From NCBI GenBank assembly GCA_000091205.1, contig AP006484.2: 64,000 bases of DNA. One strand, given 5' to 3'. This document shows, piece by piece, positions 41,768 to 62,760 of the stretch; position 1 is the stretch's first letter, and each line of letters begins with the position of its first letter. The notes below the pieces were generated by a model that did not search any database, was not told where the DNA came from, and was given only the letters and a program-made list of their open reading frames with translations. Both the position numbers and the translations under genes were made by a program. This stretch comes from Cyanidioschyzon merolae (Eukaryota).

Positions 41768-42355
41768 CTAGAGCGGCGGCTCAAGCCAGAGCGGCTTTGC
41801 ACATAGCGGGCACCTGTTCGCGTGCTGACTCCAGCGCTTGATACAGGCAGTGTGAAAGGGATGCAGGCAACTGATGAGCAACCAACTTGGCTGATGATCA
41901 TCAAGTCCAGGTGATGCGTGCATCGGTTCAGTGAGCGGTTGGGTTACCTTCAACGACTCGAGGCAGATGACGCAGGTCCACTCGTGAACACCCAGTGCTT
42001 GCGGCGAAGAGGGCAACAGCGGGAAACTGCCGCGGGGGTCTAGGCACGGAGTCGGTTTCGGACCCGCGAATATTGCATATTCTGCAGTTTGTAGGTCCAA
42101 ACTGGTAGTGCGAATCGCCAGACGAGGCGCTGTAAAGTCTGGCGTTTGGTTTCGGAAGGCAGACTGGCGTGATTCAGCTTGTGCGAATTGCCTCCGGTTT
42201 TCGCGTTCGCAGTGGTTTTCCCAGGCTATCGAGAGCCATAGCGTCGTGATCAGTACGTGTAGAAGCATGAAATCTTTCCCGTTGAACAATGAGTGCGGTG
42301 AAAATGACAAGCTCAAGGAGTTATCAGGGCGCCATGTGCACTGTTTACTGGGCAT
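41768..42355 (-). CDS. RING-H2 finger protein (probable E3 ubiquitin ligase)
   Basis: The C-terminus CVICLESL...(35 aa)...ISCLHPFHTACIKRWSQHANRCPLCAKP fits C-x2-C...C-x-H-x2-H-x2-C...C-x2-C (RING-H2). ATG start. The N-terminal half is unassigned. Confidence 0.6.
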   Translation of the reverse strand: MPSKQCTWRPDNSLSLSFSPHSLFNGKDFMLLHVLITTLWLSIAWENHCERENRRQFAQAESRQSAFRNQTPDFTAPRLAIRTTSLDLQTAEYAIFAGPKPTPCLDPRGSFPLLPSSPQALGVHEWTCVICLESLKVTQPLTEPMHASPGLDDHQPSWLLISCLHPFHTACIKRWSQHANRCPLCAKPLWLEPPL

Positions 42356-43026
42356 AGGCGGTGCTTTCGGTTTCGTGATAACAAGCGCGCTTTGCGAAAC
42401 CTCTGTTCAGGTCAGAGCGTATTTCTGTTACGTGCCCTGGGAACGCGAAACCGTTCGGATGGATGATGAAGACTGGAGACGTGCTTTCAGCAGCGTTATT
42501 TACAACGCGGCAGCAGCAGCAGCAGCAGCAATACGTCAAGATCCGTCGGTTCGTTTCGTGTTGAGCTGTGCCGGTGTGGGCGTGCATCGTTTCGTGCGAA
42601 AGTCCGCGCCAGAGGCAGGCATATGTCATGGGGTGACCTAGAATGCCTTTCGTTTCTCTTTTAAAGAGCAAGGTACACGTCTGTACAGGTATGTAGCGGC
42701 GGGCACTCTAGTGCTAAGCTCTTGGAACTGTTCGTCAAGCTGTCATAGGGCCTGGTCGGTCTTTCGCTTGGTGCTCCTCTCGTATTGCTAGCGCATTTGG
42801 GAAAGATTCCGCAGAAACGTAGAAAATCTCTAGGTTTCGTTGTCCTTCTCATAAGGTAAATTTTTGCTTGGTCGGGAAATTGGGACCAGATCGGTATCGC
42901 GAATTCATGGAGGCATGGTCGCAACGTGGCTCCGGGTCGCGGACGAGCAAGGCTCTAGAGTTTTACTCATCGGACACTTCGATCCGACGGATTACAGTGC
43001 GCTTCGAATGCGCCTTTCGTAGTTGG

Positions 43027-45433
43027 CATCTTCCTCTGCGCTGAACGCATGAAAACGAGTCTCATCGCTCGACTCACGATTAGGATTCATAAAGCGAATG
43101 CACATTCGCATGCCATCCGTCGCCATCGCCTCTGTAACCACCCTTTCCGTTCATCGATCCGAATGAGGGAAAGCGTTGAACGAGCGCCTCGAATGATCTG
43201 GGCGAAGTTGTTCCAACGTATCATCCTGGCGTACGCAGTGCAACCGGAGCTCACTGAACTCGCTCTACAAGACACGAAACAAGTGTCTCCGGGAAATGCA
43301 AGCGGCCTCGAGGCGAGTTACCGGGACCGTATCGCATGCCCCGCGAGAACAAGATGCAACGCTCGCACAACTGGAGTCACGCTGACGTGCTATGGAGGGC
43401 TCTGCTCATGACTCCATCGTCACGCGAGATGCAAGCACGGCAGGTATCGTGTCTCAAGCATCCTTTCGATACGACATCTGCCGGTTCGAGTTCCAGAGCA
43501 GCACCATCAGCTTGCACGAGATGAGCCGACGCTGCCTCTCGTCTAGACTGTGCTTGCAAAAAGTCGCCTCCATTTCGAATGGTATCGGTAGCACCAGCTT
43601 GTCAGTTGCCGCCAGCGACATCGAGAGGAAGCACTGCATCTCTCCAGACTCGTTTGGTCCCGGCAGCGTGAGGCTACAGCGCCTCCAGGGAGCGCCTCAT
43701 GAAGCGCTAGAGAATGACCTGCATGCGGTTGGAGTTTTTGAGGGTTGTTCCATCGTTATCGGCATCTGTGGTGTAGATGTTCAGGTCACCGGGTTCGTGT
43801 CGCAAAGCGTCAAGCAGCGGTCAGAAACATGTGTACGAACCTCTGATCCTACGATGAGACTGGCTTGCGTCTCCGGTGCCGAGTCTCAGATGTGTTGTCG
43901 CACGAAGGTTTCATCGAAAGACTCCGTAGGAATATGGACAGCTGGCTGCCCTGCATCTGGAACGGGTAGGAACACCGGCTCCTCGATGTCCACCAAGGCG
44001 AGGGAGGCTTGACGAAGCCCCTTCGTTTAGGGCGCTATGGTTCCCCTGATAGCGTCCTGCACGTCGCTTTCTGGCAGGTTCTCCGCGTTCGCGTGCTCTT
44101 GTAGCGAAGCCTTGATAACCAACACAGACCGCCCTTTCCGATCCGACTCTCGATCGTTTCAGTCGCTGCCCGTCCTCTTTTGGAGAGGAGTCTTTCTCTC
44201 GCTGGCCTGGTGGTTTCGTCTCGTTTTCGTTGACTGCGACGGCTCGCAAGGATATGCTTGGGACGCTCTGCCATCCTCGTATGCCCTTGGAGTTCGGACG
44301 GACCTGGTGGGCAGCAAAACTGAAGCTCGTCTTTTACTTGTACGATTCTATTATTCCTTAGGTGCCGCTCCGTCACCAGGTCTATTGCCAGGGCGCCTGG
44401 CGACTGCAGCGCGCCTGACCGCTTCCTCCCGCACACGAGCAGAGAGGGAGCGCAGTAGTTGGCGGCTGATGAAGGCCGAAAGCAACTTGTCGACGAACTG
44501 GGGTGTCACGGATGCGAACGACTCGCCTCTTCAACCCGGAGCGTAACCCTGGCGTTCGACGGCAGAGAAGCCACTGTCGACCGGACCGAAGTAAAGAGCG
44601 CTGGCTGGCGTCACGGGCAGCTCAACGTCAACCGCTGGTGCGTTCTCCTCGACACCTGGTGAGTGATGGAAAGCGACTTTATGCAACATCAGGACATGTG
44701 AATACGGGGAGCAGACTCCTCGAGGAAAGCCCCGACGACGAGGCATGAGGCATTGAACGACAGGGCCCGCTTGGCGAGTTGTAGGCGACCTCACGACTGA
44801 CTCGCTGCTGGGGCTCATGTTGATACGATACTCGCTTGTTTCTGCGCTGAAGCCAGGCGTTTGCCACTCCTGGACGACGCACATCTCGTGCAGGAGTGCG
44901 GGTCCTCCCGAACAGACGCTGAAGGCGTTAGACGATCCCCCGCGCCCCCTTTCTATCATATGGTATGCGTCCGCGAGGAAGTGCCCATGCAACAGTGGGG
45001 TATTCACCGTGCAGCGGTCTCCGGTTCGAGCGTGCGTTCTCCTTTGTCTGTTCGCGTATCGTTGTCAGCGTTCGGATCGTTGGTATGCGGGCCTGAGATT
45101 CTGCGGCTTCTTTAGACGTATTTCTTTGAAAACGTCTTGACTGGCGAGGATTGACAAGGACCCGATCTTTAGACAACGTTCTAGGAGTTCATTTCCAGGT
45201 GCACAACGTTCAGAGCACGGACGACGAGAAATACCGCTCATCCACTTGCTGTCAGTAGAATAACTGACCTGTACAATGAATTCTGTTTTCCGCCAGCTGA
45301 CACAGACTGTCATACAACGTTTCTGCGACCTATCCCCGATCGACACCAACCAATCCCTGTGTTGTACGCCTGCGAGAGACACATACGCACACAACAGGAT
45401 CTTTCTGGTACAGGTGTTCCGGAGCCACTGCTC
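43027..45433. repeat. Left arm of a large inverted repeat (about 2.4 kb), about 98-99% identical to the reverse complement of 56809-59212
   Basis: The six-frame ORFs in this arm reappear on the opposite strand in the right arm with 0-3% amino-acid differences (for example 44037-44546(+) is identical to 57696-58205(-), and 44531-45007(-) matches 57235-57711(+)). Boundaries were mapped by reading where identity stops (outer ...tcttcctctgcg[c/t]tgaacgcatgaaaacgag, inner ...ggtacaggtgttcc[g/c]gagccactgctc). Confidence 0.9.
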
Positions 45434-45701
45434 CAGTTTAACACCGCACCATAGCTCCAAAAATCTGCCGTCTTCGTTGTTGGAGTTTACGCAGTATATC
45501 CCCCAGATATGCTACCATTACCACCGCACTCCGGACGGAGACGCTCCGCCACAGACCAACGCTCTATCGACCGCCAGGCGGCGTGCCCTCAGTGATCTCA
45601 CCAGCGCTCGGCAGCGCACTTCGTTTGGCCTTCAGTTCAGTTCGTGACCTGTCCGTGCACACAACCAACGAACTGGAACGTTTCAGAAATCTGTGGAGTG
45701 C

Positions 45702-47132
45702 ATGTTTGTGTTGCCAGTACATCTGGAGAAACGACACTGCAGTCCGTTCTGCAACGTTCGGTTGGTGGCGGCAAGTCCTTGGAAACGCTTCGCGAAACGT
45801 CGCCTTTGGCTGTGCGGGGGCGCAGGTGGCCCGCCCTCCTTCGGTCGGGGAAACACCGACGATAATGACGATGACGACGACGACCAGAACGATAAAAACC
45901 GCTCTAATGGACCAAACGAACACAAAGACGACGCGAGCGACGGCCTAAACTGGTCACTGCTGCAGCGGCGGGTGCGGGAACTGCGAGCAGCTGCTGCGCA
46001 CGAAGCGAACGCCTCGGAGCGCAACTGGCAAACGGGGCGCTGTGAGCGGCTCGCGCTCCTTGTCTTCGAAGACGATGACGTTGCAGGCTTCAAATACGTC
46101 AACTCGGAGGTTCTGGTCGGCTCCAGGTCTGGTCAAGTTCGTTGGGTCGACCTGGAGCACCGACGCCTGTTGCGCACCCTCGAAGCACCGTGCTCTCGCA
46201 TCGACCCGTCGACTGTAGCGGCAACGAGTGCTCTCGACTTTGATGGTTCCGTAGCAGCGATTGGCTATGCAGACGGATCTCTCCAGTACTGGTTTCTGCG
46301 TCAAGAGACGCCCGTGAACTTTTTATCGTGGCCAAATGTGTTTCAAGCACCGGTGGTGGGTATTGCGTTGCTCCCGGGGGGCCGCTTCGCTGCCGCATCC
46401 CTCGAGGGACGCCTACGAGTCTACCCAGCGGAACCGCCTCGCCCGGGCGAGCTTGTGGTTCCAGTGCCGCCACTCGTAGACATCGACGTGCAAGTGCCGG
46501 TGCTGTCGATGGAAGCAACGACCCAACACTGTCTTATTGGTTGCCTTGACGGTACCATTCGCGTGTACTCCCTTGCGAACGGGAGCTGCGTGCTGCGTCT
46601 CAACCCCAGCGCAAACGAAGAGCGGGCAGCTGGAATTTCTGCTATCTATTACGAAACATCGACTGAAACGCTCTGGATTGGTGATGAGCTTGGACTGGTA
46701 CGCGCACTGAACCTCCAGCAAGGGGAGCTCATCCAGCGTTTCCAAGCGCATCGTGGTGGAGTTCGTTCCATTTTTGCGGATGCCACGAAATTGGTCACAG
46801 CTGGACGTACTTCCGTCCCTGGAGAGAAACCCATAGACTTTGTGGAAGACGTACTCCGAGTCGCCGAAACAGCCCGGAAGGAGACGATTCCCATTCCGGC
46901 TGTAGGAGCGGAAGTGGACGACGCAGGCGCATCGTTCCCGCATATCGAAAGTAATATTCCGGGGCTGTCGGGTGGAAGCATTCGCGTCTGGTCGCAGACG
47001 TATCAGCGACCGCTTTTTGAACTCGTTGGTCACTCCGAATCGCTCTCCACTGTGCAGTTTGATCAGAACAAGATGGTAAGTGATGGTCTGGGTAGCGTGC
47101 TGCTGATCAATCGCTTTGGTCTGAAAATCTAA
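45702..47132 (+). CDS. WD40-repeat protein with acidic (poly-Asp) N-terminal region
   Basis: WD-like blades: DGSLQYWF, DGTIRVYSLANGSCV, GGSIRVWSQTYQRPLFELVGHSESLSTVQFDQNKMVSDG. The first ATG is at 45702, since the tool used GTG 45693. The 5' end begins about 270 bp inside the unique segment, next to the left IR arm. Confidence 0.6.
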   Translation: MFVLPVHLEKRHCSPFCNVRLVAASPWKRFAKRRLWLCGGAGGPPSFGRGNTDDNDDDDDDQNDKNRSNGPNEHKDDASDGLNWSLLQRRVRELRAAAAHEANASERNWQTGRCERLALLVFEDDDVAGFKYVNSEVLVGSRSGQVRWVDLEHRRLLRTLEAPCSRIDPSTVAATSALDFDGSVAAIGYADGSLQYWFLRQETPVNFLSWPNVFQAPVVGIALLPGGRFAAASLEGRLRVYPAEPPRPGELVVPVPPLVDIDVQVPVLSMEATTQHCLIGCLDGTIRVYSLANGSCVLRLNPSANEERAAGISAIYYETSTETLWIGDELGLVRALNLQQGELIQRFQAHRGGVRSIFADATKLVTAGRTSVPGEKPIDFVEDVLRVAETARKETIPIPAVGAEVDDAGASFPHIESNIPGLSGGSIRVWSQTYQRPLFELVGHSESLSTVQFDQNKMVSDGLGSVLLINRFGLKI

Positions 47133-47905
47133 AGTCTCCGAGGACCTCGACAGAGCCATTGAATTCATCCAGGCTTCGTACCCGCGCACTCAGACTTGCA
47201 GTGTCTGTCAGTTTCTCATGAGGAGGATCGGCTACTCGTGGACATGCAACAACTTCACCCTGCAGATCAGTGCTTCAGTGCGGCTGAACGCTGGAGTCAC
47301 TGCTCGCTATTGCGGTATCCAGTGGAACTGAGGCAGAGGCTCAATGCCGTTGTGATTGAAAACGCAACTCGATATCTCCGCCCAGTCTGCGGCCGCAGAC
47401 CCGAAAAATCGTGTACTTCTGTGTATTGTCGGCGTGCCAGGTGCGGGACAGGCACCACGGTATGAGTGTGTCAATGTTTCTGGGCATTGGCAGCGTTCGG
47501 TGCCGAGACGGACGTCTCGGGAGAGGATGCAGTGTCGAGCACAGTTCCCAGCAATGGGCTCTGGGCAGACTAGAGGTGCCCGTTGCGCGCACAAACGCGT
47601 TGAATCATGGTATGGCGTCAAAGTCTACAACAAGAACAACAGCAAGGTCGGGAAGGGTAAATGCGCTGACGACCCCAGAGCGAGTGAACCGGTGGCCGGC
47701 GCCTAAGAAACGTTGCTGGCGCTGCGTAGAGCACTACGGATACGAGCGAATACCCAGTGAACCAAAGGACCTTCCATTCAATGGGGCACGCCGGTACCAG
47801 AATGCGCTCCACAGTGCGACATTCTGGCGTACCAGGGCCCTCTTACCGCCACAAGCTCTTGAGTCCGCAACGCGCATCATACTATCGGTGAACCTCTGCA
47901 GCATC

Positions 47906-47998
47906 CTATGAGTGCCACAAGGTTTGAATCCCGAAACGCTGGCGGGCATCCGTGAACCACTGATGTGTCCCAAAGTAGGGGTCCCAGTCGTCGTCCTC

Positions 47999-48030
<32 letters not shown>

Positions 48031-51000
48031 CGACGTCGTCGTCATCGTCGTTAGGGTCTGCGTCATCATTGTCTCCGGTGCCCGCTGAAGTCGTGGGAGC
48101 GGTCGTAGCGGCTTCGACGCACCCAGGGGCCCCATTGACAGCATCTACAACCGCCTGCCCGGTCTGTGCCTGCATCGTCGAGAATCCGTTATGCGGAGCA
48201 GTGGACAATCCAGACGCCTGGTTCGGGGAAAGCGCTGCTACCTGCATTGACCGCTGCCCAGCGCTCGTGTCTGCGCCGTGCCCTACCCAATGACCTTCGG
48301 GCAGTGGAAGCAGGGCCAGCGTCCGTTCGCTGCCTCTGCTTCCATGAGACGACAGTACACGAGCCGGAGAGCGACCCATTTCAGCTCTCAAAAGCGGCAT
48401 TTCAAGCGCATCCGATGTCGAGCACGCTGCAGGGTGTATTGTAAAAGCGACGGAGATGAGGTACGGGAACGCATGCAGCACGAGCCGGGTGTAGCGGTGC
48501 AGATCTGCAACCACATGCTTGCGATCCTCAAAGTGCTCCAGCTGGGACTCTATGTGCCCACTGGCTTCTGCTGCGGCAATGGACGACTCGAAGAGGGCCA
48601 GTTCGGCACGCTCGCGAGGTAGGAGGGTCCTGCGCTGACGGCGCGCAAACGCTAGTCTCATAGCAATATGCGCTCGCATACCGCGTACCGTCTCACGACG
48701 AATCGGCACATAGACAAAGCATTGGACGCGTAAGACGGACCTTGCTTCCACAATGACTCGCTCAAACTCATTCAAGTAGCCAAGTTCCAGCAGCAAATGG
48801 CCGAGTCGTGCCACCAGTTCAGGATCACGTTCCAGCTCTGCAGCGTGCTCGGTCTCGGCGAGGTGCAGTTCAATCTCCGCACGGCGTCTGTAGCGAACAA
48901 GTTCGGCAGCGTAACTGATAGGCCCTGCCTGGATAGTCCATAAACACGACTGCAGACGGCACGGACAAGGTTCGTTGAGCGCTTCAGCAGCAGCCCGAAA
49001 CACGGCTTCGATCGCCTCGTACTCCCTGGCGTTGAGCGTGAGACGCCCTGAACCGCCGAGTAGCACTTTTTGCATATGTGTATCAACAGTGATCCGCTGA
49101 GATGTATCCGGATGAAGCAGGTTATCGAGAAAAGCGGTGACTTTGCTCCCACTGGGGACCCCCAGACAACCCGCCAAATAGTTCAGCAATGAATTCATGG
49201 GATAAGAGCCGAAGCGCGGTCGCCTCACCTGCGAAATCGCCCGATAATTGAGCAGTGCGTTGATCGTATTTGCCGCAATCGATGAATTCGGTGAACACGT
49301 TGCAAGGAGCGAAAGGAAAAGATGCATTTCGAGAGCGTTTCCGTATGTCGCGCCCTGAACTACATCGTGGAGGTCCTGGTACCACGTGTACATGGCTGGA
49401 TGCGTTGCGCGGATGCGCTTCAAGTGGTCGCCCAGTGTCTCCAGGGTCGGTGGAGGCCTCTCGAAACGGTGTTCCCCGAGAACCTCGATACAGGTGCGTA
49501 ATGCAGCTTCAAAAGGCAACGGCTTGCTGGACGCTGCAGTAGGTGGTGCAGGTTTCACCAGCGTCTGTGAGTCGAGTCGTTGGCGTCGAGCCCATTCTCT
49601 GCGCGCTTGCATCCCATTAGCGACTGGATTGAACCGCACCAGCTCCTCCAGAGCATGCCGGACTGCCCGCAGCTTCCGCGATGATGCCCACTCGTCCGGT
49701 ACACTGAAGACCCGCGGATGTGTTTCGTAGATGCACTCTCGAAGAGCGTGCTGAACGTGCGCCTCGGCAGAGAGGCGGGGTGTAGTGTCCGCAACCGTCC
49801 CGCGTTCCCGCAGGATGCGTCGTTCGTACGCATGTTGGACGCGTACGTAGAGCAGCACGTGCTCCTGTCTGCGCAGCTCGTTGGTGATCGCTGCGAGGCT
49901 CTTTTGTGTGGCTCCGAGGAGTTGCTCCAGGCGGTCGCGACCTTCCTGGACGAGAGCATCGATTTCCTGACGATGTTTTTGACGGAGTCGTTCACCTTCT
50001 TCACCGGCAGGGTACGCATTAGAGCGAAGATATTTCGTAGGGTTTGGCGCAATCGCAAGTGAGCCAAAAGTCTTCGGACTGCCTCCAGAGGTGTCGCTTG
50101 TGGTGTGCATGAGTAGCTGCTCCTGGCGATGGCCGACGCGTTCCAGCCACTGCTCCCGTATGCTCATGAGCCATTGTTGATATAGGGCAACATTCTGCAG
50201 CGGCCAGAGAGCACGACATGTGTCATCTGTTGTTGCGACGTGATCAGGAGCTGTGCTCTTGATCCCGCCCTCAGTGGTCTGCGTGTGTGCCGCTGCCTCC
50301 GCTGCTGCTTCACGGACAACCGATTCGGCTGCCGTCTGTATCTTTGCGTCTTGTTCGGAGTCCTCAGTGCCGCTTGATCGGATGCGCTGCTGATCCTGAA
50401 TCCAAAGCAGGGCACGGGACCAAGCGTCTTCCATGCTCGCGTCAGTTACAAGCGAAGCGACGGTAGCATCGGCGTCGACCCTGTGCGTTTGAGGATCCTC
50501 GATGCCGCTGATGCCCCCGTTCGATGCACTGCTCGCTGCTGGTATATTTTCGATTATAGACGGCCGCCACGGGGTGAAAGCGTGTTCCTCTAATCTCGCG
50601 TTCTGCAGCTTTGCTGACGACGGAAGGGCATCACATGTTGAAATAGCACTGCAATCGTTCCGCAAGCCCGCGGAAGCCTGCTTCATTGGTGACTGGAGCA
50701 CTTTGGGCGGTCTCCAGGGCGGTGCTTCGCGTTCACGAGCTCTCGACAAGCACAGCCTAGGACGCCGCGGCCCAAGCTGGTCACGTTCAGGTCTGGTTGA
50801 AGACTTTTGGCCGCTGGCAGCAACGGTAACGGCTTCCTTATTGCCAGGGCTACAAGCGTCCTGGCCGTTTCCCGGCACAAGGGAGCTGCGCTTCTTCGGG
50901 GACCAAAATGTCTCACAAGCATACGATTTGGCTTGCACGCTGTTTTTTTGTACGTCAACCATATTGCTTACTTCTGACGAACGCGAACTGCTGCCGCAGC

Positions 51001-51199
51001 GCACCGGTGTAGCAGCGGGCACAGTCTCGAGGCCCAGCGCTTTAGCGGCCTTCAGAAACGGATTTTCGCACGCGTTAGGTGCGAGCACCCTATCCAGTAA
51101 TGGTGTCGCCACTCTGCCTGAGTCGGTTTGCGGGGAACTAGTCGGCGGCACGAACGCTGGACCTGGTGGAGCTGATGCCTCTTCCTCTGACGTCTGCAT
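47906..51199 (-). CDS. Large (about 1100 aa) hypothetical nuclear-type protein with possible HhH-GPD (EndoIII-like) motif and C-terminal poly-Asp/Glu tail
   Basis: Continuous 3.3-kb ORF; the first ATG after the GTG start is at 51199. LAGCLGVPSGSKVTAFLDNLLHPDTSQRITVDTHMQKVLLGG resembles the EndoIII helix-hairpin-helix plus VDTHIFRV segment (Lys and Asp positions conserved), followed by ...CLWTIQAG, which resembles HHWLILHG. The C-terminal DNDDADPNDDDDDVDDDDDDGDDDDEDDD is encoded by (GAT/GAC)n. Confidence 0.5.
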
Positions 51200-52432
51200 C
51201 GCGGGGAAAAGCACAACAGCTGGACCCTTATTTTCCCCAAATTCTCCGCTTACAGCAGCCACCTATGCAAATACAGTATTTTAAGGTCGGTCTCTGGAGA
51301 TTATGAGCCAAAGATCACAACTAAACACCGCAAGTTCCCGAAAAGCTCAGATAGCGCATTCTGATACCAGATCGCTTAGAGCGCGATCCAGTACGCAGTT
51401 GTTCGCGAGGCGCATCGGCGGCTGGAGGCGGCGGTTGATCTGCAGCGATCCATCGCAGTGCGATGGCTTTGTAGTGTCTCCAGCCTAGGCTCTTGAAACT
51501 AATCTGATATAGTAGACCGGGATACAGTATGCGCTTTTGTCGGGTGCCTCGATCGTTCCAGGCGAGATGCAAGGATCAAACGTCGTGGCAGATATGGACG
51601 CTACAAATGTGCTATGCCTCTGCCGAGATCACCAGATCCGGGGGACGTAGCGGGCATCATAACTTGGACAGCGACGATAGCATGGAAATGACTTGAACTA
51701 TCATCGGTTCTAGCCCATGACGCGGGATAGAAGCAAAATTCAGGTCAGGTCCTTATTCCAGCGTCCGTGCGGCATGCATAACAAGCATAGGGATTAAACG
51801 TATATCCGTGTTCAGGAATCCTACCGTGCCTTGTTTGTTTACGATCAATAAAACTAACGAAACTCTTCAAGGCTAGAGTGATGCGTACCTTATCCAGACA
51901 AGCGTAAGCCGCAGAGAACGCTACGCTTTTGATCGAAGCGTCGAGGGGTATCCTGCCAGGCCCCTACATCTCCATGTATGTCAAGGCGGTACTGCGATGG
52001 GCAGTAGCTTCGGCACCAGCGACAGACCCTATAGCAAGAGATTATTCTACGTGAGTTTCCAATCTACGATACTTTATTTCAGCTGCAGCGCGATACAAAC
52101 ACGCATGTGCCAAGGCGGGGTGTCGGACACGTGTCCTTCATCGATCGATGAGGCGTCTCGCGCAGCGCATGCATCGCGCTCGATGAGGGTACCTGGGAGT
52201 TGGGGCAGATATGAGACACGACGCGCGTGCCGCCGTTGAAGGGAAACGTGATCTTGATCTTTAGCGTCTAGCTCTCGTGTAAAAGTTGTATTTTCGTTAA
52301 CTTCATAGGCAAGTATAGTTTTTAGTTCGATTGTGTTTCAACCCTCAAGTGAAAATATTCGATTGATTTTTCGCAGTGTATAAGAGAAGCCTTCACAGAG
52401 GGTTCATTTGAAAAAACTCAAAAAGGAAAGTT

Positions 52433-53230
52433 ATGGAAGAGCAAGTCGACGATCCTGGAGGCCCAGGGTCGCAGGCTGCCAGAAAAAACAAAAAAACAGT
52501 GCCGAGTCCAGAAGAAAAGGAAGAGAAGAAGACCCAAAGGGGGAAGGTCCTACGTCGAAGGCGGCAGGAAAGACGACTGTACAACGAGATGGTGGTGAAT
52601 ACCTCTCTTCTTGGACATATCAAGGATCCGTACGAGCAAAATTTGCGAGACGCTATCAGAAACCGTGTCGATTCGGACTCCAGGAGTATTATAGAGGCGT
52701 CGCCAGGACTGATGCATTTAGCGAGGGAGGTGTATCGCGACGTGACGCACATGGAAACGGTCGAGATTCCGGACGAGCTCTTCGACCAGACTTTTATTCG
52801 TCACCTAATGCTTGGCACAGGGGAAGCGCGGAGGGGAAATGAGCGGGTGCAAGTCCTCCACGAAAACTTCGCGGAATTCCGCTTCGAGGGTAATCGATAC
52901 AGGGGTGACGGGGATATTTACATACGCGGCGCCATGAAGTACCTCACGAATCTGAAGAACCATTTAACAGTGAACCTCGAACGTTTCATGATACGCACCG
53001 AGTTTGCACTTTACCCGGGCATCTCTCGCAAGGGGATATCGGCGATGATCAATGGAATCACGAACGATCGCCAGCGAGAAGATGAGATCAAGTTCGTTGA
53101 CAAGAAGCCGTCACACAGGAGCATGAATGAAGTCTCTGTAATCCGTGCGCCTATACAAGAGCACCGTGCAGTCTTGGGGCTGGCGAATCCAACAGACAAG
53201 ATATCAGAGTTGAAAAATGATAAGGAATGA
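52433..53230 (+). CDS. N-terminal segment of the TnpB/Fanzor-like protein (Lys/Arg-rich NLS-like N-terminus followed by helical REC-like region)
   Basis: ATG start. KNKKTVPSPEEKEEKKTQRGKVLRRRRQERRL is a strong bipartite NLS-like stretch, and Fanzor proteins characteristically carry N-terminal NLS/disordered regions. The segment is in the same frame as 53585-54634 but is separated from it by stop codons. Confidence 0.35.
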   Translation: MEEQVDDPGGPGSQAARKNKKTVPSPEEKEEKKTQRGKVLRRRRQERRLYNEMVVNTSLLGHIKDPYEQNLRDAIRNRVDSDSRSIIEASPGLMHLAREVYRDVTHMETVEIPDELFDQTFIRHLMLGTGEARRGNERVQVLHENFAEFRFEGNRYRGDGDIYIRGAMKYLTNLKNHLTVNLERFMIRTEFALYPGISRKGISAMINGITNDRQREDEIKFVDKKPSHRSMNEVSVIRAPIQEHRAVLGLANPTDKISELKNDKE

Positions 53231-53390
53231 TGTTATCCCCTCATCCTACGCTACTTCGTGCTTCTGGAACGAGAGCTCGAACGCAAGGCGGAGATGAAGC
53301 TGAGTAAGGAAAAATGAAGTGTCGGAGAGACGAAAGGCTGCGCTTCTGACGAACCGCTTCAGTGTCGTTCCAATGTGCAACATCAAGTCA

Positions 53391-54634
<1,244 letters not shown>

Positions 54635-54707
54635 GGCGCGTTCGCCGCCACTACTCTACTCGGTCGGCGTCCTTCGCCTTTAGGACGGAGTTCGTTGGTG
54701 CTCGTTG

Positions 54708-55445
54708 ATGTTCGGCAGCAGCCGACGCGCAACGGTGAGGAAGAGCTTGTCTATTATCGAAGAGGATGAAGACGAGGCAGTCAGTGAATGCGACAGTCCT
54801 GCGGAGCTCCGGCACCGGATCACTGACGGACCGAGGAAGTTTGACGCTGTCGGAGTGACCGGTCACGGCGTGGAGAGCGACGAGTCCAGTGCTGGTAACG
54901 AAACGATGCCCTCGAGAGCACACAAGGTGCCACTCGGCCCGGTGGAGCAATCACGTCTGGGAACGAGTGCGCGCTCGAGACGCCAAGAGCAGCGCGGGCA
55001 AAACACTGACCAGATTCGTGAATTCCAAGTACGGTTACAGGAAACCCAAGATGCGCTGAGAAAAACTCAGGCCGAGGTAAGTATGCTCCGGGCTCACGTC
55101 TCGGCCCTGGAGATGGCACTGGAGGAGCGGAACACTGAAGTGCGGCGGCTACGTGAGCAGCTTGCATCCAGCGCACCAGGCGCTAGTGGGACTTTGAATG
55201 TACAGCAGGGGAAAGTGGCCTCGGCCGTAGGTCGAGACCTGCTCGGACTCTTAAGAAGTAGCCATGCGTCCGCAGCTGATTCGCCGATATCGATTTCCAC
55301 TGTCTCTGAGGGCGCACTGAAACCGTCGCTGCCATCACGACTTGTCGAGCTGCGCGCCAATACTTCTCCAACAGCGAGCTCATCTGCGTCGAATATCTTG
55401 CTAGGTACTCCAGATACTGGAAAATCTTCGATGGGCAAACGTTGA
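54708..55445 (+). CDS. Hypothetical coiled-coil protein immediately downstream of the TnpB-like gene
   Basis: ORF with an ATG at 54708. The central segment QIREFQVRLQETQDALRKTQAEVSMLRAHVSALEMALEERNTEVRRLREQLAS is strongly heptad-like. It could alternatively be non-coding, such as a guide-RNA region of the TnpB-like element. Confidence 0.3.
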   Translation: MFGSSRRATVRKSLSIIEEDEDEAVSECDSPAELRHRITDGPRKFDAVGVTGHGVESDESSAGNETMPSRAHKVPLGPVEQSRLGTSARSRRQEQRGQNTDQIREFQVRLQETQDALRKTQAEVSMLRAHVSALEMALEERNTEVRRLREQLASSAPGASGTLNVQQGKVASAVGRDLLGLLRSSHASAADSPISISTVSEGALKPSLPSRLVELRANTSPTASSSASNILLGTPDTGKSSMGKR

Positions 55446-56808
55446 CGCCGGTGCCTCTAGGCCGGCGAGAGCACGCCAGATAAGTCTTCTGTAGTTGATG
55501 AGGTACCGTGGCGCTGCTCCTTGTACACTGACAGGCATTGGTGTGGTCTGCGACCGCCCTTGCCGCCCGAAACGGAGCGGATTTTCGTTGCGCTGGGAAG
55601 TGCCCGCTGCAGAGGTCGCTCTCTGGGATGTACTCGAGCCCTAGATATTGTATTAGAAGCGGATTATCCCGTATGAAGACTATCGAAAACGCTTTCACGA
55701 GACAGGCCATGGATTATGGGAAGTTGCACTGGGGAATCACTGCCTTGCAGGTTTCTTTTGTTGCATCATCGGAATCGTAAGCTGGCACTCTTGTATCTCT
55801 CTGCGACGACCTGAAAAAGAGCGTTTCGTCTGCGAAATCTTACGAAATCATGGACCACAGGGTGTGGTCGAGCGCAGAGAAGCGTTGCCGGCTTGCATTC
55901 GGTCCCGTATGTTCGTACTGTCTTTTCTAAATGTCGCCTCATTGCTCCAGCTCTATGTCGCTAGTCATGCGTGCAAAGATTCAAATGTGCAGGCAGGTCT
56001 ATGTCCAGTTCCAAGTCCGCGACGCATGAAAGCAGGTAAGGCAGCAGGCATGGATGCATGTGTACGCGTTTGTTCGCATCCACGCGGGCAGGTAGGCAGG
56101 TAGACACGCTGGTACACAGGAGCTGGATTCTGCATCTGCGCTCTGCGAAGGCTATCCAGCAAAAAGATCGGGATACGTGCTGGGTCCCAGTGCTAAAGAT
56201 CAGAGCGTGTACCAAATACAATGTGCAAGGAGTTGATCAATGGCATGCAAAGGCGACCGCCACGCCCTCAGGTCATGTTGTTCACGGCATTTTGCGACAA
56301 TTGCATTGAGGTACTCGTTCGCATCCGTTCCATCTATTCCAGCTTCTGGAAATCTAGCTTGAAAGGTATCATATTAGGAAGGGAGCAAGCATTGATGATG
56401 CCTTGCACCTGACAGCTCTTCAAATCCTCGATCGCAAAAAGTACGCATTGGAGGTTTAGACGAGGCGCAACCTTGATGTGTCGAGTTTTAGGGAATAACG
56501 TGGGCGTTTACCAGCAAATCTTAACAAGCTAGTTCTTTGCGCTGGGGATGGGGGGTGTCGCATTGCGGCTGCTGCGATCAATTGGGCGAAAAACTCGTGC
56601 CATGATTGGTCGGCATTTTTCATCTTCTAGGATCGAAGAGAAGAAACAGGGACAACATGGGTGCGGCATTGTTGTTGGTTTCCAGGGACCTGACCACCAG
56701 GCCGATCTAAAACCACAACTTCCACGAAACACGAACCAGACCTCGCAAGGTGGGTGCAACGATGCTGACCGTTGTCAAGGGCCGGTCCGTTGACTTTTTT
56801 TTGGTTCA

Positions 56809-59212
56809 GAGCAGTGGCTCGGGAACACCTGTACCAGAAAGATCCTGTTGTGTGCGTATGTGTCTCTCGCAGGCGTACAACACAGGGATTGGTTGGTGTC
56901 GATCGGGGATAGGTCGCAGAAATGTTTTATGACAGTCTGTGTCAGCTGGCGGAAAACAGAATTCATTGTACGAGTCAGTTATTCTACTGACAGCAAGTGG
57001 ATGAGCGGTATTTCTCGTCGTCCGTGCTCTGAACGTTGTGCACCTGGAAATGAACTCCTAGAACGTTGTCTAAACATCGGGTCCTTGTCAATCCTCGCCA
57101 GTCAAGACGTTTTCAAAGAAATACGTCTAAAGAAGCCGCAGAATCTCAGGCCCGCATACCAACGATCCGAACGCTGACAACGATACGCGAACAGACAAAG
57201 GAGAACGCACGCTCGAACCGGAGACCGCTGCACGGTGAATACCCCACTGTTGCATTGGTACTTCCTCGCGGACGCATACCATATGATAGAAAGGGGGCGC
57301 GGGGGATCGTCTAACGCCTTCAGCGTCTGTTCGGGAGGACCCGCACTCCTGCACGAGATGTGCGTCGTCCAGGAGTGGCAAACGCCTGGCTACAGCGCAG
57401 AAACAAGCGAGTATCGTATCAACATGAGCCCCAGCAGCGAGTCAGTCGTGAGGTCGCCTACAACTCGCCAAGCGGGCCCTGTCGTTCAATGCCTCATGCT
57501 TCGTCGTCGGGGCTTTCCTCGAGGAGTCTGCTCCCCGTATTCACATGTCCTGATGTTGCATAAAGTCGCTTTCCATCACTCACCAGGTGTCGAGGAGGAC
57601 GCACCAGCGGTTGACGTTGAGCTGCCCGTGACGCCAGCCAGCGCTCTTTACTTCGGTCCGGTCGACAGTGGCTTCTCTGCCGTCGAACGCCAGGGTTACG
57701 CTCCGGGTTGAAGAGGCGAGTCGTTCGCATCCGTGACACCCCAGTTCGTCGACAAGTTGCTTTCGGCCTTCATCAGCCGCCAACTACTGCGCTCCCTCTC
57801 TGCTCGTGTGCGGGAGGAAGCGGTCAGGCGCGCTGCAGTCGCCAGACGCCCTGGCAATAGACCTGGTGACGGAGCGGCACCTAAGGAATAATAGAATCGT
57901 ACAAGTAAAAGACGAGCTTCAGTTTTGCTGCCCACCAGGTCCGTCCGAACTCCAAGGGCATACGAGGATGGCAGAGCGTCCCAAGCATATCCTTGCGAGC
58001 CGTCGCAGTCAACGAAAACGAGACGAAACCACCAGGCCAGCGAGAGAAAGACTCCTCTCCAAAAGAGGACGGGCAGCGACTGAAACGATCGAGAGTCGGA
58101 TCGGAAAGGGCGGTCTGTATTGGTTATCAAGGCTTCGCTACAAGAGCACGCGAACGCGGAGAACCTGCCAGAAAGCGACGTGCAGGACGCTATCAGGGGA
58201 ACCATAGCTCCCTAAACGAAGGGGCTTCGTCAAGCCTCCCTCGCCTTGGTGGACATCGAGGAGCCGGTGTTCCTACCCGTTCCAGATGCAGGGCAGCCAG
58301 CTGTCCATATTCCTACGGAGTCTTTCGATGAAACCTTCGTGCGACAACACATCTGAGACTCGGCACCGGAGACGCAAGCCAGTCTCATCGTAGGATCAGA
58401 GGTTCGTACACATGTTTCTGACCGCTGCTTGACGCTTTGCGACACGAACCCGGTGACCTGAACATCTACACCACAGATGCCGATAACGATGGAACAACCC
58501 TCAAAAACTGCAACCGCATGCAGGTCATTCTCTAGCGCTTCATGAGGCGCTCCCTGGAGGCGCTGTAGCCTCACGCTGCCGGGACCAAACGAGTCCGGAG
58601 AGATGCAGTGCTTCCTCTCGATGTCGCCGGCGGCAAATGACAAGCTGGTGCTACCGATACCATTCGAAATGGAGGCGAGTTTTTGCAAGCACCGTCTAGA
58701 CGAGAGGCAGCGTCGGCTCAGCTCGTGCAAGCTGATGGTGTTGCTCTGGAACTCGGACCGGCAGATGTCGTATCGAAAGGATGCTTGAGACACGATACCT
58801 ACCTTGCTTGCATCTCGCGTGACGATGGAGTCATGAGCAGAGCCCTCCATAGCACGTCAGCGTAACTTCAGTTGTTCGAGCATTGCATCTTGTTCTCGCG
58901 GGGCATGCGATACGGTCCCGGTAACTCGCCTCGAGGCCGCTTGCATTTCCCGGAGACACTTGTTTCGTGTCTTGTAGAGCGAGTTCAGTGAGCTCCGGTT
59001 GCACTGCGTACGCCAGGATGATACGTTGGAACAACTTCGCCCAGATCATTCGAGGCGCTCGTTCAACGCTTTCCCTCATTCGGATCGATGAACGGAAACG
59101 GTGGTTACAGAGGCGATGGCGACGGATGGCATGGGAATGTGCATTCGCTTTATGAATCCTAATCGTCAGTCGAGTGACGAGACTCGTTTTCATGCGTTCA
59201 ACGCAGAGGAAG
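56809..59212. repeat. Right arm of the large inverted repeat (reverse complement of 43027-45433)
   Basis: As for the left arm: mirrored ORFs on the opposite strand with about 98-99% identity. Confidence 0.9.
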
Positions 59213-61509
59213 ATAATGCCGTCGTGGAGGGCGCGAGTCCCCTGCCTGAAAATACCCTGGCCATCGCCGTACCTCCGAATCAAGAGAACGGAGCCGACGA
59301 CCTCATGAGGAAAGCCGATGACGCTTCTTAGCTTTTCCAGAGTTCCGCTTGATCGAGATTCGGGCATCTTCGACACCGGCAGGGACACCCAGATGAGAAG
59401 AGTCGGCGTCTGGACCCATGTCGATGCTCGTTGCAACGTATCGAGCATATAGCGATGCTTTATTCGCTTCATGGAGATTGGCCGTGAGCACCCGTATGGC
59501 TCAGGGCCACGACCTCTGGCAGGGGGATATGGGATCGTACTGGGTCGCCAACGCTATCGGTTGTATGGGGGCAAGTAGTGTGCATTCACTTCCCTTTTCA
59601 ATGAGTTATGAGAGGAAATCACGCGGAAGGCGCGTCATTTGGTGGTATCCTATGGCGCTGGATGTGCTGCGGCATGCAATGCTTGCACTCCTGCTCCCCC
59701 TCTGACGAGAGAGTACAACGACTGCAGGGATCGATGCTGTACGATTTTTATGGATGCATTCTTGTCGACATACACGCATCACGAGCAGTGCTGCACCACG
59801 AAAACTATGAGGGAGGAATCGAGCGACACAGTATCCGAAGCGCGAGATGACTGGCGGGCTAAGCTGACCGAACGATAGATAGCGAGCGAATCAAAGATGA
59901 TAGGCTTGCTATGGTGTATTGTCACCAGTAAGAGAACGCGCAAGCATTTCCTCTACCAATACCGCAACGTTGCGATCAGCAAACGGAGTAATCTCGTGCG
60001 TTCGGAGCGTTTAGCGGCACGGCGTCGAACGAACTTCTAGGGAATCGTTTCGTACTCCGCATGGGCAGTGTGCTTGGACACGGACGACGTCCCGTGACGG
60101 AACCTGTTGTCAAATGCGAGGGTATTGGATTCTGGGCGGAGCTACGTACGGGCATGGTAGGAGTCAGCACCCGAATAAGGCTGGAACTCCGTATTTAGGT
60201 ACATACAATGGGAACGAGTTTTCAGGGCAATTCATGAACGTTCGTATTTGCCCATGATGCGACGTTTCTGTTGATGAGCAAGCAAATGTGAGTATCATTA
60301 GGGAGCTCACTTCTGGACAGCATGATGCTGTGACTCTACGCATAGACCTACGCTTCTCGAAGGCAGCCGCTTTATGACACGGGGCGATAAAATCAACGTC
60401 GATACCCGCCAGCATCCAAAATACTATCTGGATTGTGGTGCCTCGCATCGTTCAAGCGTTCCGAAGGGTGCGTTGCTTCCAAAGCGTTCCAGGTATTCTG
60501 CGTTACTTTCGCAGATGCAGCATGCTGTCTCGCTAGGTGCAGAGCGATCACGGGCAATTCGGCTTAAGGCGCATGATGGAAGCTTCCGATCTTGCAGTTA
60601 TCTCGAGTGCCGGTCTTCATGGCCAGTGCACGTGGAAACGTTGTCTTTGAAAAGTTTCGTGAGAGCGATCGCACGGAACTCGACGGGTTTTCGGAGACAC
60701 TTCAACACAAGCACCTTGCCGCAGACGTGATCGATCTAGATGCGGCTGGGGCATAGCATCGTGCATCGATTCGAAGCATTGCTCCACAATAAGCAGCAAA
60801 TGAGCAACGCAGCTGTGGATATCGGGGAGAGGTTCGCGATCGACACGCCTCTTCGCGCAAAGAGCGCTCCATCGCGTCGACATTCACAGGGGTCATCGTG
60901 CTGGTAGACCCGCCTTGGAACACTAGCAATGCATTGTCTCGATGGATACGTATTCGTCACGAGGATTGATACCTTGGCTTTGAAGCAGCAGTCTCTTCAT
61001 GAGACAGCTGCTTCAAACCAGTGCCGCCTCGGCCAGCAACGTCAGCAGCGTATCGATGCGCTGACCCATAAACCATCCACACATGCACCACTGTCGGTGA
61101 AACGCTTACTCACCTTCCCTAGCTTCCACCGAAACAAAAACTTTCATTTAATTGGCGTATTTAGAACTAGATAGTCACTCAGCTCAGAAACGATATAGAA
61201 TCATTCCGTCGTCCTGAGCAAGGGGTAGTTTGGATCCAGTGCATCTCTGGCCTTGTGCGACGCTCGCGTTCCCCTGATCGGCTTGCTTACGAGGCAATTG
61301 TTACTCAAGAGTCACGGTCCACAAGTGAAAAGCAACGGTCGCTGGTACAGAGCCGAAAATCCCCACCGATTCGAGTGCAACAGTTGCTTGGGCGCACCGA
61401 ACCCGAAGCAGTCAAAGCCAATCATCACTTGAAGACTGCACCTCTTGCCACGCTGCTTGACCCTTATCAGCGACATAGACCTTGACTGGAATCTGTCGTC
61501 AAGAGTTAC

Positions 61510-62520
61510 CTAGTGCTCGATCGTGCCCACCCGAGTCAGCGGCCAGTAACGAAATACGGCACGTCCGATGACGTTACGCTCGGGGAGGAAACCCCAAACA
61601 TGCGAATCCAGCGAGTTGCTCCGATTATCGCCCAATACGACCAGATAGCCGTCAGGGACCTGGACGGGACCCCATTGATAATCCGGACTTTCGGCAATGT
61701 AGGTCTCGATCTGCGCCTCTCCGTTGACATAGAGTCGCCCGTCGCGAATCTCGACAACATCACCACCCAGAGCAACCACACGTTTAATCATCGCATCTCT
61801 AGCACCATACTGGTGCGCACCTGTCTCTCCCGCAGCGTTCAGTGCTTTTGCGGTCTCTTTGCTGGCCTCAATGAGTGCCGGCGGCGGGTAAAAGACCACA
61901 ACGTCGCCTCGTTGGATATGACGACCGAGTTTCAAGGTGACCTTGTCCACAAGCAGCTGATCGCCCACATCAAACGTCGGATACATGGAGAGCGATGGAA
62001 TGTAGCGTGGCTCTACGACGAAAGCGCGAATGAACACAGCTGCTAAAAACGAGGCCGTAAACACGCGCACGTCCGCAAACTTGTCGTCGCGCCACAAGCG
62101 CTGCCACCAGACTTGCCACTGCTGCACAACAGGGATTTTTTGTGTCGCTGACGTCGCTGCTGGCGCTGGAGACGTATCGTCCGACTCCTCACTAGTCGAC
62201 CATCGTTCGCGGACTTTCTCAACGAGCTCCTCAGTCGCTTGCTCGGTGAGCATGCGCTGCTCTATCGAGCTTGTCCCCCAGGCGACGTCAGGTAGGCTCT
62301 CTGGCTTCCCGTTCACTTCACCAGGCACCGCTGCGGTGTTCTGCCGCTCATCGTTGCGCGAGATGCGGGCCAAGCAAGGTCGGAAACGCGACCCAGCCCG
62401 AGACGCTCGCCAGCGAAGTGATAAACACTTTGAAACGCTCCGCGCTGCCCGGGGCCGCAGCACGAACGCCCCCGAGCAAGTGCTGAACGCACAAAGTTGT
62501 CGTGAATTGTACCTGTCCAT
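61510..62520 (-). CDS. Type I signal peptidase (S26 family, bacterial/thylakoidal-processing-peptidase-like) with Arg/Ser-rich N-terminal presequence
   Basis: Catalytic boxes are present: PSLSMYPTF (Ser box B), IKRVVALGGD (Lys box D) and YLVVLGDNRSNSLDSHVWGFLPERNVIGRAVFRYWP (box E, GDNRNNS.DSR). The ATG start is followed by an R/S-rich, acid-poor 40 aa (MDRYNSRQLCAFSTCSGAFVLRPRAARSVSKCLSLRWRASRAGSR), typical of an organellar transit peptide. Confidence 0.8.
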   Translation of the reverse strand: MDRYNSRQLCAFSTCSGAFVLRPRAARSVSKCLSLRWRASRAGSRFRPCLARISRNDERQNTAAVPGEVNGKPESLPDVAWGTSSIEQRMLTEQATEELVEKVRERWSTSEESDDTSPAPAATSATQKIPVVQQWQVWWQRLWRDDKFADVRVFTASFLAAVFIRAFVVEPRYIPSLSMYPTFDVGDQLLVDKVTLKLGRHIQRGDVVVFYPPPALIEASKETAKALNAAGETGAHQYGARDAMIKRVVALGGDVVEIRDGRLYVNGEAQIETYIAESPDYQWGPVQVPDGYLVVLGDNRSNSLDSHVWGFLPERNVIGRAVFRYWPLTRVGTIEH

Positions 62521-62760
62521 ACACGTATTTGGCTGGCAAGCACCCGTTTTCCCTCAAGCTCAACTGACCACGTACGCTTCACAAAGCGCTTGTGCAACGT
62601 TTGACACAAACACAAACGCAAGCTAAAGAACGTTGGGTGTGTGTGTGTGGAGATCGTTGCATCACGCGCCTGTCAGGGCGCGCCGGCGTGATAGTCGCCG
62701 GCGCGCTTCTCCAGCGCACACCTGGGTGCCGTGCGATATACCTGCAGGTGCTCCTGCTGT

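Follow-up and report, generated by a model that had tools for sequence, protein, structure and literature searches.

An inverted segmental duplication that probably marks both breakpoints of a three-gene inversion on chromosome 2 of Cyanidioschyzon merolae

A lineage-specific inverted segmental duplication probably marks both breakpoints of an 11.4 kb three-gene inversion on chromosome 2 of Cyanidioschyzon merolae. An origin coupled to the inversion itself, through staggered breaks, is favoured with a little better than even confidence. The rearrangement is of a known and ordinary kind; it is neither a giant transposon nor an assembly error. The window (the whole stretch of 64,000 nucleotides analyzed) is C. 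merolae 10D chromosome 2, NC_010128.1:320001-384000. The structure consists of two arms and the segment that they enclose:

43028-45433 (chromosome 2 363028-365433), no strand: left arm, located by repeat search and self-BLAST and crossed whole by contigs L001, L007, and L008
45434-56808, no strand: central segment of 11,375 bp, reversed relative to sister species (blastn and tblastx synteny)
56809-59214 (chromosome 2 376809-379214), no strand: right arm, located by repeat search and self-BLAST and crossed whole by contig L029

Each arm has 2406 nt. Self-BLAST aligns the two at 98.55% identity (E = 0) without gap openings; of the 35 mismatches, 19 are transitions and 16 transversions. The initial annotation had placed inverted repeats of about 2.4 kb at 43027-45433 and 56809-59212. 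The self-BLAST that it had proposed confirms the repeat but moves the coordinates by 1-2 nt, and the "few small indels" it described between the arms do not occur in the gap-free alignment. The mismatches are skewed outward, with 21 of the 35 lying within the outer 705 nt (binomial p = 1.5e-4). The edges of the arms are sharp: at outer and inner boundaries alike, identity reaches background within one base. Self-BLAST found no third copy within the 64-kb window. The arms look non-coding, as had been suspected earlier. Their ORFs have no Pfam domains, the 77 variable sites show no codon periodicity, and the 10D v2.0 GFF annotates no gene models in them.

Genes inside and beside the central segment are as follows:

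41768-42355, minus strand: RING-H2 ORF (Pfam, synteny), the last collinear gene on the left
45702-47132, plus strand: WD40 gene CMB135C (Pfam, synteny, GFF), reversed relative to sister species
47906-51199, minus strand: DUF7178 gene CMB136C, 1118/1097 aa (Pfam PF23802, synteny), reversed relative to sister species
54708-55445, plus strand: coiled-coil gene CMX020C (tblastx, GFF), reversed relative to sister species
61510-62520, minus strand: signal peptidase S26 gene CMB139C, where collinearity resumes to the right

Pfam and ORF analysis agree with the initial annotation that the center holds a WD40 gene, a gene for an 1118-aa protein, and a coiled-coil ORF. CMB135C starts 269 bp from the left arm, and the DUF7178 gene of the window is 100% identical to CYME_CMB136C. 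CMX020C is the orthologue of a 243-248-aa gene of the sister species (tblastx), and its poly(A) site lies near 56216 (poly(A)-tailed contig L018).

Synteny was compared with Cyanidiococcus (Cyanidiococcus yangmingshanensis; L002) and a second sister species (L003-L005). By blastn and tblastx, the block of three genes (coiled-coil, DUF7178, and WD40) is reversed in both order and orientation relative to these two species. On the left, the flanking genes ACL, CMX019C, LSm, and RING run in the same direction as in L002 and L003-L005, and so does the S26 peptidase gene on the right, which directly adjoins the WD40 gene in the sister species. The arms sit exactly at both breakpoints: on each side, the arm occupies the gap that separates the outermost reversed gene from the nearest collinear one. 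This fits the earlier proposal of a palindromic segmental duplication able to flip its center. No inverted repeat was found at the sister-species loci, and tblastx and blastn detected no counterpart of the arm sequence in these species. The sister species are nearer to one another (57%) than either is to C. merolae (50% and 47%); therefore, outgroup order alone cannot place the branch on which the inversion occurred.

All four arm junctions recur in independent metagenome contigs from other samples. L001, L007, and L008 run from the left flank through the whole left arm to the WD40 gene, with both flanks present. L029, part of a 76-kb contig, crosses the whole right arm and joins the right flank, the arm, the coiled-coil gene, and the Fanzor element. 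The right inner junction is also found in L016 and L017, and the right outer junction in L026 and L027. Arm-only contig L015 starts precisely at the outer arm end and contig L014 stops precisely at the inner end, while L013 falls 13-48 nt short of both ends. Copy number was assessed in the 64-kb window and in public arm-bearing contigs. All 11 public contigs with the 169-aa ORF of the arm come from the chromosome 2 locus, as do all three matches of an arm 27-mer in JGI metagenomes. A protein search with the arm ORFs missed known identical ORFs and is uninformative on dispersal. No single-arm haplotype was found among the arm-bearing contigs.

Further features bear on which of the four junctions are original:

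43028-43790, minus strand: duplicate of the N-terminal part of a Fanzor1-like relic in the left arm (arm identity; HMM piece 43644-43790), cut at the left outer junction
45434-45523, no strand: 90 bp of WD40-side flank, also present in the right copy of contig L028
52219-54650, plus strand: degenerate Fanzor1 (CMe-1A-type) element (family HMM, PDB profile match; 5' end approximate)
56809-56820, plus strand: 12-mer GAGCAGTGGCTC at the right inner junction
58452-60043, plus strand: decayed second Fanzor1-like relic (tblastn and HMM), spanning the right outer arm boundary at 59214/59215

The relic at the right outer boundary is matched by HMM in three pieces, 59312-60043 (E 4e-31), 59206-59319 (E 5e-4, the RuvC-I region), and 58452-58580 (conditional E 0.024). 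It contains stops and frameshifts, and its protein remnant is only 32% identical to P0039, a member of the central CMe-1A-type family; it is therefore old. The left flank proper (42356-43027) gives no Fanzor match by HMM that would continue the relic there. At the right inner junction, L028 has the 12-mer, then 90 bp that are the reverse complement of 45434-45523, and then the 12-mer again and the arm. Since this right copy holds 90 bp of the WD40 flank, the duplicated tract would originally have measured at least 2496 bp. At the outer boundary, the relic continues on the right side and is interrupted on the left. Together with the 90-bp extension in L028, this argues with moderate strength that the arm-WD40 junction (left inner) and the junction of arm and right flank (right outer) are the original contiguities, and that the other two are rearrangement joints. 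This polarity rests on the weak N-terminal relic match (the piece with conditional E 0.024) and on one 1260-bp contig, L028.

The proposed history is as follows. The ancestor would have had the sister-species order with a single arm, namely WD40, arm, right flank, and signal peptidase, and the arm would have been intergenic DNA that took in the first half of a defunct Fanzor1 element. A single event may then have broken the chromosome between the RING and coiled-coil genes and, with staggered cuts, at both sides of the arm tract. After fill-in, end joining would have put the block back in reverse, with one arm copy left at each end. The right inner joint may initially have been 90 bp longer and have included a templated repeat of 12 bp; the present boundary would have formed later, when the sequence between the 12-mers was deleted. 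The arms, now without coding function, would recombine by non-crossover gene conversion, and possibly by crossovers that flip the center. Such recombination would keep them about 98.5% alike and spread the same polymorphisms to both sides. In Drosophila, inverted duplications of this sort are reported for 17 of 29 inversions, and they frequently derive from just one of the breakpoints (PMC1885836).

A serious but less probable alternative is that the structure arose in two steps. An inverted arm copy would first have been inserted between the RING and coiled-coil genes; homologous recombination between the arms would then have flipped the center and may continue to do so, with both orientations coexisting. 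Such a history predicts exactly the four junctions observed. Arms of 2.4 kb at 98.5% identity are ample substrate for recombination, and C. merolae is reported to integrate transgenes by homologous recombination (PMC12874030). It needs, however, an extra unexplained event, the inverted insertion of intergenic DNA 11 kb away.

Both this alternative and the favoured history draw on signs of exchange between the arms. Across contigs, left and right arm copies have 25 shared polymorphisms and 1 fixed difference, and they do not cluster by side; the left arm of the window differs at 26 sites from the right arm of L029 but at 35 from the right arm of the window. These patterns tentatively suggest that the arms exchange sequence by gene conversion, which the initial annotation had raised as an ongoing process. 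Note that short-read metagenome assemblers can mix the arms, which would mimic both shared polymorphisms and a contig of the opposite isomer. One such contig is L010, in which the right flank (59644-59215) is followed by the arm and then by the WD40 side, that is, the sister-species order. L009 has a similar join with 67 bp of right flank and an odd end that resembles a fold-back. The sample series that yielded L010 also contains poly(A)-tailed transcript contigs, and L010 is probably a transcript assembly; its join could also be an assembler switch inside the repeat. The clearly genomic contigs and every other whole-arm contig (L001, L007, L008, and L029) show the window isomer, and no reciprocal contig joining left flank, arm, and coiled-coil gene was found among the contigs. 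It is a possible, though less than even, proposition that the arms are a live recombination substrate, that the 11.4 kb segment flips repeatedly in populations or in 10D cultures with L010 as a true second isomer, and that frequent gene conversion keeps the arms alike. If true, C. merolae, a model alga with a simple genome and established engineering by homologous recombination, would have a flip-flop segment in its nuclear DNA.

It is improbable that the arms are two opposite insertions of one transposable-element family, the right copy extending to about 60150 and the left one truncated, with ectopic recombination between them causing the inversion. The outer arm and right flank do form a Fanzor1-type relic, C. 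merolae has about 150 CMe-1A copies (PMC3627910), and repeats account for 12.7% of the genome (PMC9812998). But the relic is old, yet the arms are 98.5% identical, and another near-identical copy occurs in none of the samples. Moreover, the element does not continue in the left flank, the inner part of the arm has no similarity to the central element, and in L028 the homology extends into the WD40 flank. The central element and the relic share no nucleotide similarity and therefore could not have mediated the inversion by recombination. The Fanzor1 elements are passengers, not boundaries, of the structure.

The initial annotation had also considered a very large mobile element bounded by terminal inverted repeats (TIRs). 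That a DNA transposon with TIRs of 2.4 kb and a cargo of 11.4 kb inserted here is highly improbable. Only the architecture and the internal Fanzor1 gene speak for it. The earlier TnpB/Fanzor-like label for that gene is upheld, as the wider family profile (A2) matches Fanzor1 structures from Parasitella (9cf0, E 6.5e-21), Spizellomyces (8gkh, E 6.4e-11), and Guillardia (9cer, E 8.3e-07). Pfam, NCBIfam, and single-sequence PDB searches gave no match for the element, and the family HMM matches it at 52847-54631. The family has 1377 representatives with E <= 1e-3; homologues of the element fall into 205 clusters, with 59-96% identity among the 120 listed. The invariant residues of the family are D314, E486, and D555, where the window reads GVNPG, VNEFR, and NRVFNAAIN (N, E, and V); of the three invariant RuvC residues, only E486 is retained. 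The ORF is also split in two, and no Fanzor match was found in the sister-species loci (L002-L006). The central Fanzor1 is a separate 2.4-kb element whose catalytic site, judged from these residues, is dead, and CMe-1A elements are without TIRs (PMC3627910). No target-site duplication of 2-12 bp exists at the outer junctions (left flank ...GTAGTTGGC, right flank AATGCCGTC...), and Pfam found no transposase domain among the ORFs of 150 aa or more. The transposon was rejected on the missing duplication, the single locus among the public arm-bearing contigs, the lack of a transposase, and a "cargo" consisting of native syntenic genes. An assembly artefact, in which a collapsed or chimeric join made a false second arm, has a negligible probability and was rejected. 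Only the general risk of repeats speaks for it. The tested gene matches the finished telomere-to-telomere 10D sequence exactly, the two arms are distinguishable at 35 sites, and contigs assembled independently from other samples reproduce the four junctions and contain both arms in full.

Several known systems resemble this locus. At human Xq28, repeats of about 11 kb flank the FLNA-EMD segment, which undergoes recurrent inversion, and both orientations are frequent and known from more than one species. Like the C. merolae locus, it has long, near-identical, non-mobile inverted repeats around a small gene segment, and gene conversion homogenizes them, as it appears to do in C. merolae. In C. 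merolae, unlike at Xq28, a doubtful contig (L010) is the sole evidence for the second orientation. In plastid genomes and the yeast 2-micron plasmid, inverted repeats recombine and the unique segment reverses while gene content stays unchanged. These are multicopy extrachromosomal molecules, and the 2-micron plasmid has a dedicated site-specific recombinase; the C. merolae segment encodes nothing like it.

Inversions of the Drosophila melanogaster group (Ranz et al. 2007, PMC1885836) resemble the C. merolae inversion as proposed here: breakpoint sequence that was ancestrally local and non-repetitive is present inverted at both ends, with end-joined junctions. At 2.4-2.5 kb, the C. merolae tract exceeds the longest duplication reported from Drosophila inversions (about 1.9 kb; PMC1885836), and its copies are 98.5% alike, apparently through continued sequence exchange, compared with a mean of about 88% in Drosophila. 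C. merolae is also a red alga with a 16.5-Mb genome, and a single-copy ancestral state is presumed for it. The CMe-1A/Fanzor1 elements that Bao and Jurka (2013) described from C. merolae occur in many copies of about 2.4-3 kb, have no TIRs, and are mostly decayed (PMC3627910). The 52.2-54.65 kb element and the 58.45-60.04 kb relic belong to this group, and they ride along within the structure rather than bounding it.

No new kind of genetic element is revealed by this locus. It offers a clean, small, fully sequenced inversion with a bracketing inverted duplication, outside animals. The 12-bp repeat, the 90-bp longer variant, and the truncated transposon relic bear on how such events form. Editing or mapping near CMB135C, CMB136C, and CMX020C should take account of the duplicated 2.4 kb on either side. 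Since strain 10D serves as a laboratory model, with its genome finished and homologous recombination in use for engineering, arm flipping and conversion are directly testable in it.

In Cyanidioschyzon merolae, a red alga, a three-gene block on chromosome 2 lies between two arms of a real inverted segmental duplication, which bounds a small inversion at either end and is confirmed independently. A repeat search of the window and self-BLAST both bear out the inverted repeat claimed in the initial annotation, whose arm coordinates are corrected here by 1-2 nt:

43028-45433, left arm
56809-59214, right arm, inverted with respect to the left

The arms are 98.55% identical over 2406 aligned bases, with 35 mismatches (16 transversions and 19 transitions) and no gaps; the few small indels described earlier do not exist. 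All four arm ends are sharp, identity being lost within one base, and self-BLAST finds no third copy in the 64 kb window. The outer 705 nt of the arm holds 21 of the 35 mismatches (p = 1.5e-4).

The enclosed genes and the right-hand neighbour have these positions on NC_010128.1 in the v2.0 annotation published with PMC13353863:

365702-367132, CMB135C, WD40 gene
367906-371199, CMB136C, DUF7178 gene
374708-375445, CMX020C, coiled-coil gene
381510-382520, CMB139C, S26 peptidase gene, outside the block

The window is therefore 320001-384000 of chromosome 2. Taken from the first ATG, the CMB136C ORF (47906-51199, minus strand) matches CYME_CMB136C of strain 10D with 100% identity. That genome was completed telomere to telomere (PMC1955436), and the text of the paper makes no mention of any inverted repeat or inversion. 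The one inversion that has been reported to separate strain 10D from MS1 is shown on chromosomes 3 and 19 rather than on chromosome 2 (PMC13353863). Scanning the window for Rfam families and tRNAs gives no match.

Comparison with sister species shows which part of the locus is turned around. Among named relatives, the one nearest to CMB136C is a protein of Cyanidiococcus yangmingshanensis (50% identity), and the homologue of a further species is 47% identical. The loci of both sister species carry, in order, ATP-citrate lyase, a 300-aa gene, LSm, RING, a 243-248-aa gene, DUF7178 (+), WD40 (-), and signal peptidase S26 (-). By blastn and tblastx, these genes keep the direction of the relatives in C. 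merolae:

34.7-36.6 kb, ATP-citrate lyase
39.2 kb, 299-aa gene
41.1-41.4 kb, LSm
41.8-42.4 kb, RING
61.5-62.5 kb, S26 peptidase

By the same searches the coiled-coil gene, which is orthologous to the 243-248-aa gene, is reversed together with DUF7178 and WD40, and the two intervals in which direction changes are exactly the positions of the arms. Neither sister locus contains an inverted repeat. As tblastx detects no counterpart of the arm there, the origin of the arm is unreadable from these loci. Moreover, the sister species are nearer each other (57% identity) than either is to C. merolae, so they may not polarise the inversion unaided, and a polarity argument internal to the C. merolae locus matters.

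Two features near the reversed block deserve mention. In a 195-aa ORF (41768-42355, minus strand), a RING-H2 domain scores above the Pfam cut-offs, and each sister species has an orthologue. The v2.0 GFF has no gene between CMB130C and CMB135C, though this ORF sits there; the ORF is possibly a gene missed by the annotation. Immediately upstream of CMX019C (39198-40097) is a long imperfect GCTGCTGCGGAT(G) / CTG-type repeat (38869-39087).

The inverted block also contains a Fanzor element (52219-54650, plus strand; ~52.2-54.65 kb), which is absent from the sister-species loci. Searches with Pfam, NCBIfam, a single sequence against PDB, and a narrow profile against PDB did not match it to Fanzor, and an AlphaFold model from a shallow alignment is unusable (pLDDT 33.6). 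Homologues fall into 205 clusters, with 59-96% identity among the 120 clusters listed, and representative relatives number 1377. Only the wider profile, built from 41 diverse family members, links the family to solved Fanzor1 structures (9cf0, E 6.5e-21; 8gkh, 6.4e-11; 9cer, 8.3e-07). In C. merolae, CMe-1A is present in ~150 copies with ~80% identity to the consensus, is ~3 kb long, and lacks TIRs (PMC3627910); the profile matches agree with this family. In the window copy, RuvC is changed at two of its three invariant positions (D to N and D to V) and the reading frame is split; the element is dead.

The arms themselves appear non-coding, as the initial annotation had held. Their ORFs have no Pfam domains, codon periodicity is absent in every one of them (77 variable sites in 14 aligned copies), and the v2.0 annotation has no gene model in either arm. 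In the 169-aa arm ORF, third codon positions account for 5 of 8 variable sites, a proportion that is not significant and is biased by exact-match retrieval. A concatenated protein search for homologues of the arm ORFs gave no match, but it also missed ORFs known in the collection and is therefore uninformative. One stretch (43733-44400, equivalent to 57842-58509 in the right arm) has ~6 variable sites in ~670 nt among the 14 copies, against 3-6% variable sites in the rest of the arm; it shows neither an Rfam match nor codon periodicity.

The profile of the central Fanzor-like family uncovers a second, much more decayed Fanzor1 relic on the plus strand in and beyond the right arm, in three pieces:

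58452-58580, N-terminal piece, weak but collinear (conditional E 0.024)
59206-59319, different frame, over the RuvC-I motif region (E 5e-4)
59312-60043, strong match (E 4e-31)

This relic thus crosses the right outer arm boundary (59214/59215). In the left arm the relic is cut at 43028, leaving just the N-terminal part, and the same profile finds no continuation in the left flank. The remnant is ~32% identical at the protein level to P0039, which belongs to the family of the central element, and contains stops and frameshifts. The outer 700 nt, where the arm varies faster, corresponds in position to this dead coding remnant.

Because the relic spans that boundary, arm plus right flank is an original contiguity and the joint of left flank and arm is the rearranged one. 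The other original contiguity comes from L028, a public contig with a variant right inner junction, in which the coiled-coil flank is followed by the 12-mer GAGCAGTGGCTC, 90 bp, a second 12-mer, and the arm. Reverse-complementing 45434-45523, in the WD40-side flank, gives exactly these 90 bp. This junction is novel and has no k-mer in common with the window, which argues against a simple switch by the assembler. The variant implies that the duplicated tract once extended at least 90 bp further, that arm plus WD40 flank is the second original contiguity, and that the present right boundary is the product of a deletion between the 12-bp repeats. One ancestral arm with both contiguities gives WD40 - arm - right flank - S26, as in the sister species.

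The simplest history is a single event. The chromosome would break in the interval that separates RING from the coiled-coil gene, further breaks, staggered, would occur either side of the arm tract, and fill-in with end joining would complete the inversion and leave the arm duplicated. The same model has been put forward for Drosophila, where 17 of 29 inversions have inverted duplications and 12 of these 17 duplicate one breakpoint only (PMC1885836). A two-step history, in which inverted duplication came first and homologous recombination flipped the segment later, is also possible and predicts the same four junctions.

An assembly artefact, one of the options raised in the initial annotation, is excluded. 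Supporting contigs were found by exact look-ups and one metagenome scan; they come from many hot-spring samples and are ~99% identical to the window:

L001, L007, L008: left flank, whole arm, WD40 side
L029 (part of a 76-kb contig): S26, right flank, whole right arm, coiled-coil gene, Fanzor element
L016, L017: right inner junction
L026 (65-kb contig, ending 169 bp inside the arm), L027: right outer junction
L015, arm only: starts at precisely the outer end of the arm
L014, arm only: stops exactly at the inner end
L013, arm only: 43076-45420, 13-48 nt short of both arm ends

A two-copy repeat breaks short-read assemblies at the repeat ends. Contigs break at the arm ends in this way, and independent contigs cover all junctions and whole arms, which together rule the artefact out. 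Exact look-ups of the RING ORF, a 175-aa ORF, the right-arm 158-aa ORF, a junction-spanning 213-aa ORF, and CMB136C gave no match.

Several of these contigs also differ from the window. L029 diverges (at 13412-14783) left of 51486, just upstream of CMB136C, where it has an 84%-identical copy of the Fanzor element 3' end (54595-54669), probably another insertion or solo end in that strain. Alignments of L026 and L029 break at a tandem repeat (62666-63080) made up of four to five 83-bp units, 146 bp upstream of the CMB139C start, suggesting that copy number differs between strains. L007 and similar 11.6-kb contigs begin inside the 38869-39087 repeat.

The large TIR-bounded mobile element with cargo proposed earlier is contradicted on four counts: the outer flanks share no direct repeats of 2-12 bp, and hence no target-site duplication of that size; all 11 contigs with the 169-aa arm ORF and all three metagenome matches of an arm 27-mer are the same locus; the genes between the arms are native neighbours of the flanking genes in sister species; and Pfam finds no transposase in window ORFs of at least 150 aa. 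The central Fanzor element and the relic have no nucleotide similarity, so the inversion was not mediated by recombination between them.

Left-side and right-side arm copies do not form separate groups. The left arm of the window differs at 26 sites from the right arm of L029 and at 35 from its own right arm, and the window right arm is closest to the left arm of L008 (25 sites). Left and right copies with window-type flanks have 25 shared polymorphisms and one fixed difference. Of 1035 site pairs, 588 fail the four-gamete test. Sexuality is now known in C. merolae, whose strains diverge by ~0.7% (PMC13353863), and allelic recombination explains part of the exchange signal. Polymorphism common to both sides needs inter-arm conversion or assembler cross-talk.

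Contig L010 joins the right flank (59644-59215), arm, and WD40 side, which is the uninverted, sister-species-like arrangement. L009 has the same join with just 67 bp of right flank and an odd, fold-back-like end: positions 1-152 start with an 85%-identical direct copy of 43046-43147, followed by the 67 bp and then the arm. This start could be a real outer-junction variant or an assembly oddity. L018, from the sample series of L010, carries a terminal run of 22 non-templated A residues beyond window position 56216, which marks the poly(A) site of CMX020C and a 3' UTR of ~770 nt. Several JGI "contigs" of this series are therefore transcripts, and L010 is probably a transcript assembly, which could have switched arms. 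The reciprocal contig (left flank, arm, coiled-coil) was not found among the public contigs recovered.

Inversion with inverted duplication is a well-known kind of rearrangement, and no description of this particular locus is apparent in the literature examined. Its interest is modest, and only proof of continued flipping of the segment could raise it.
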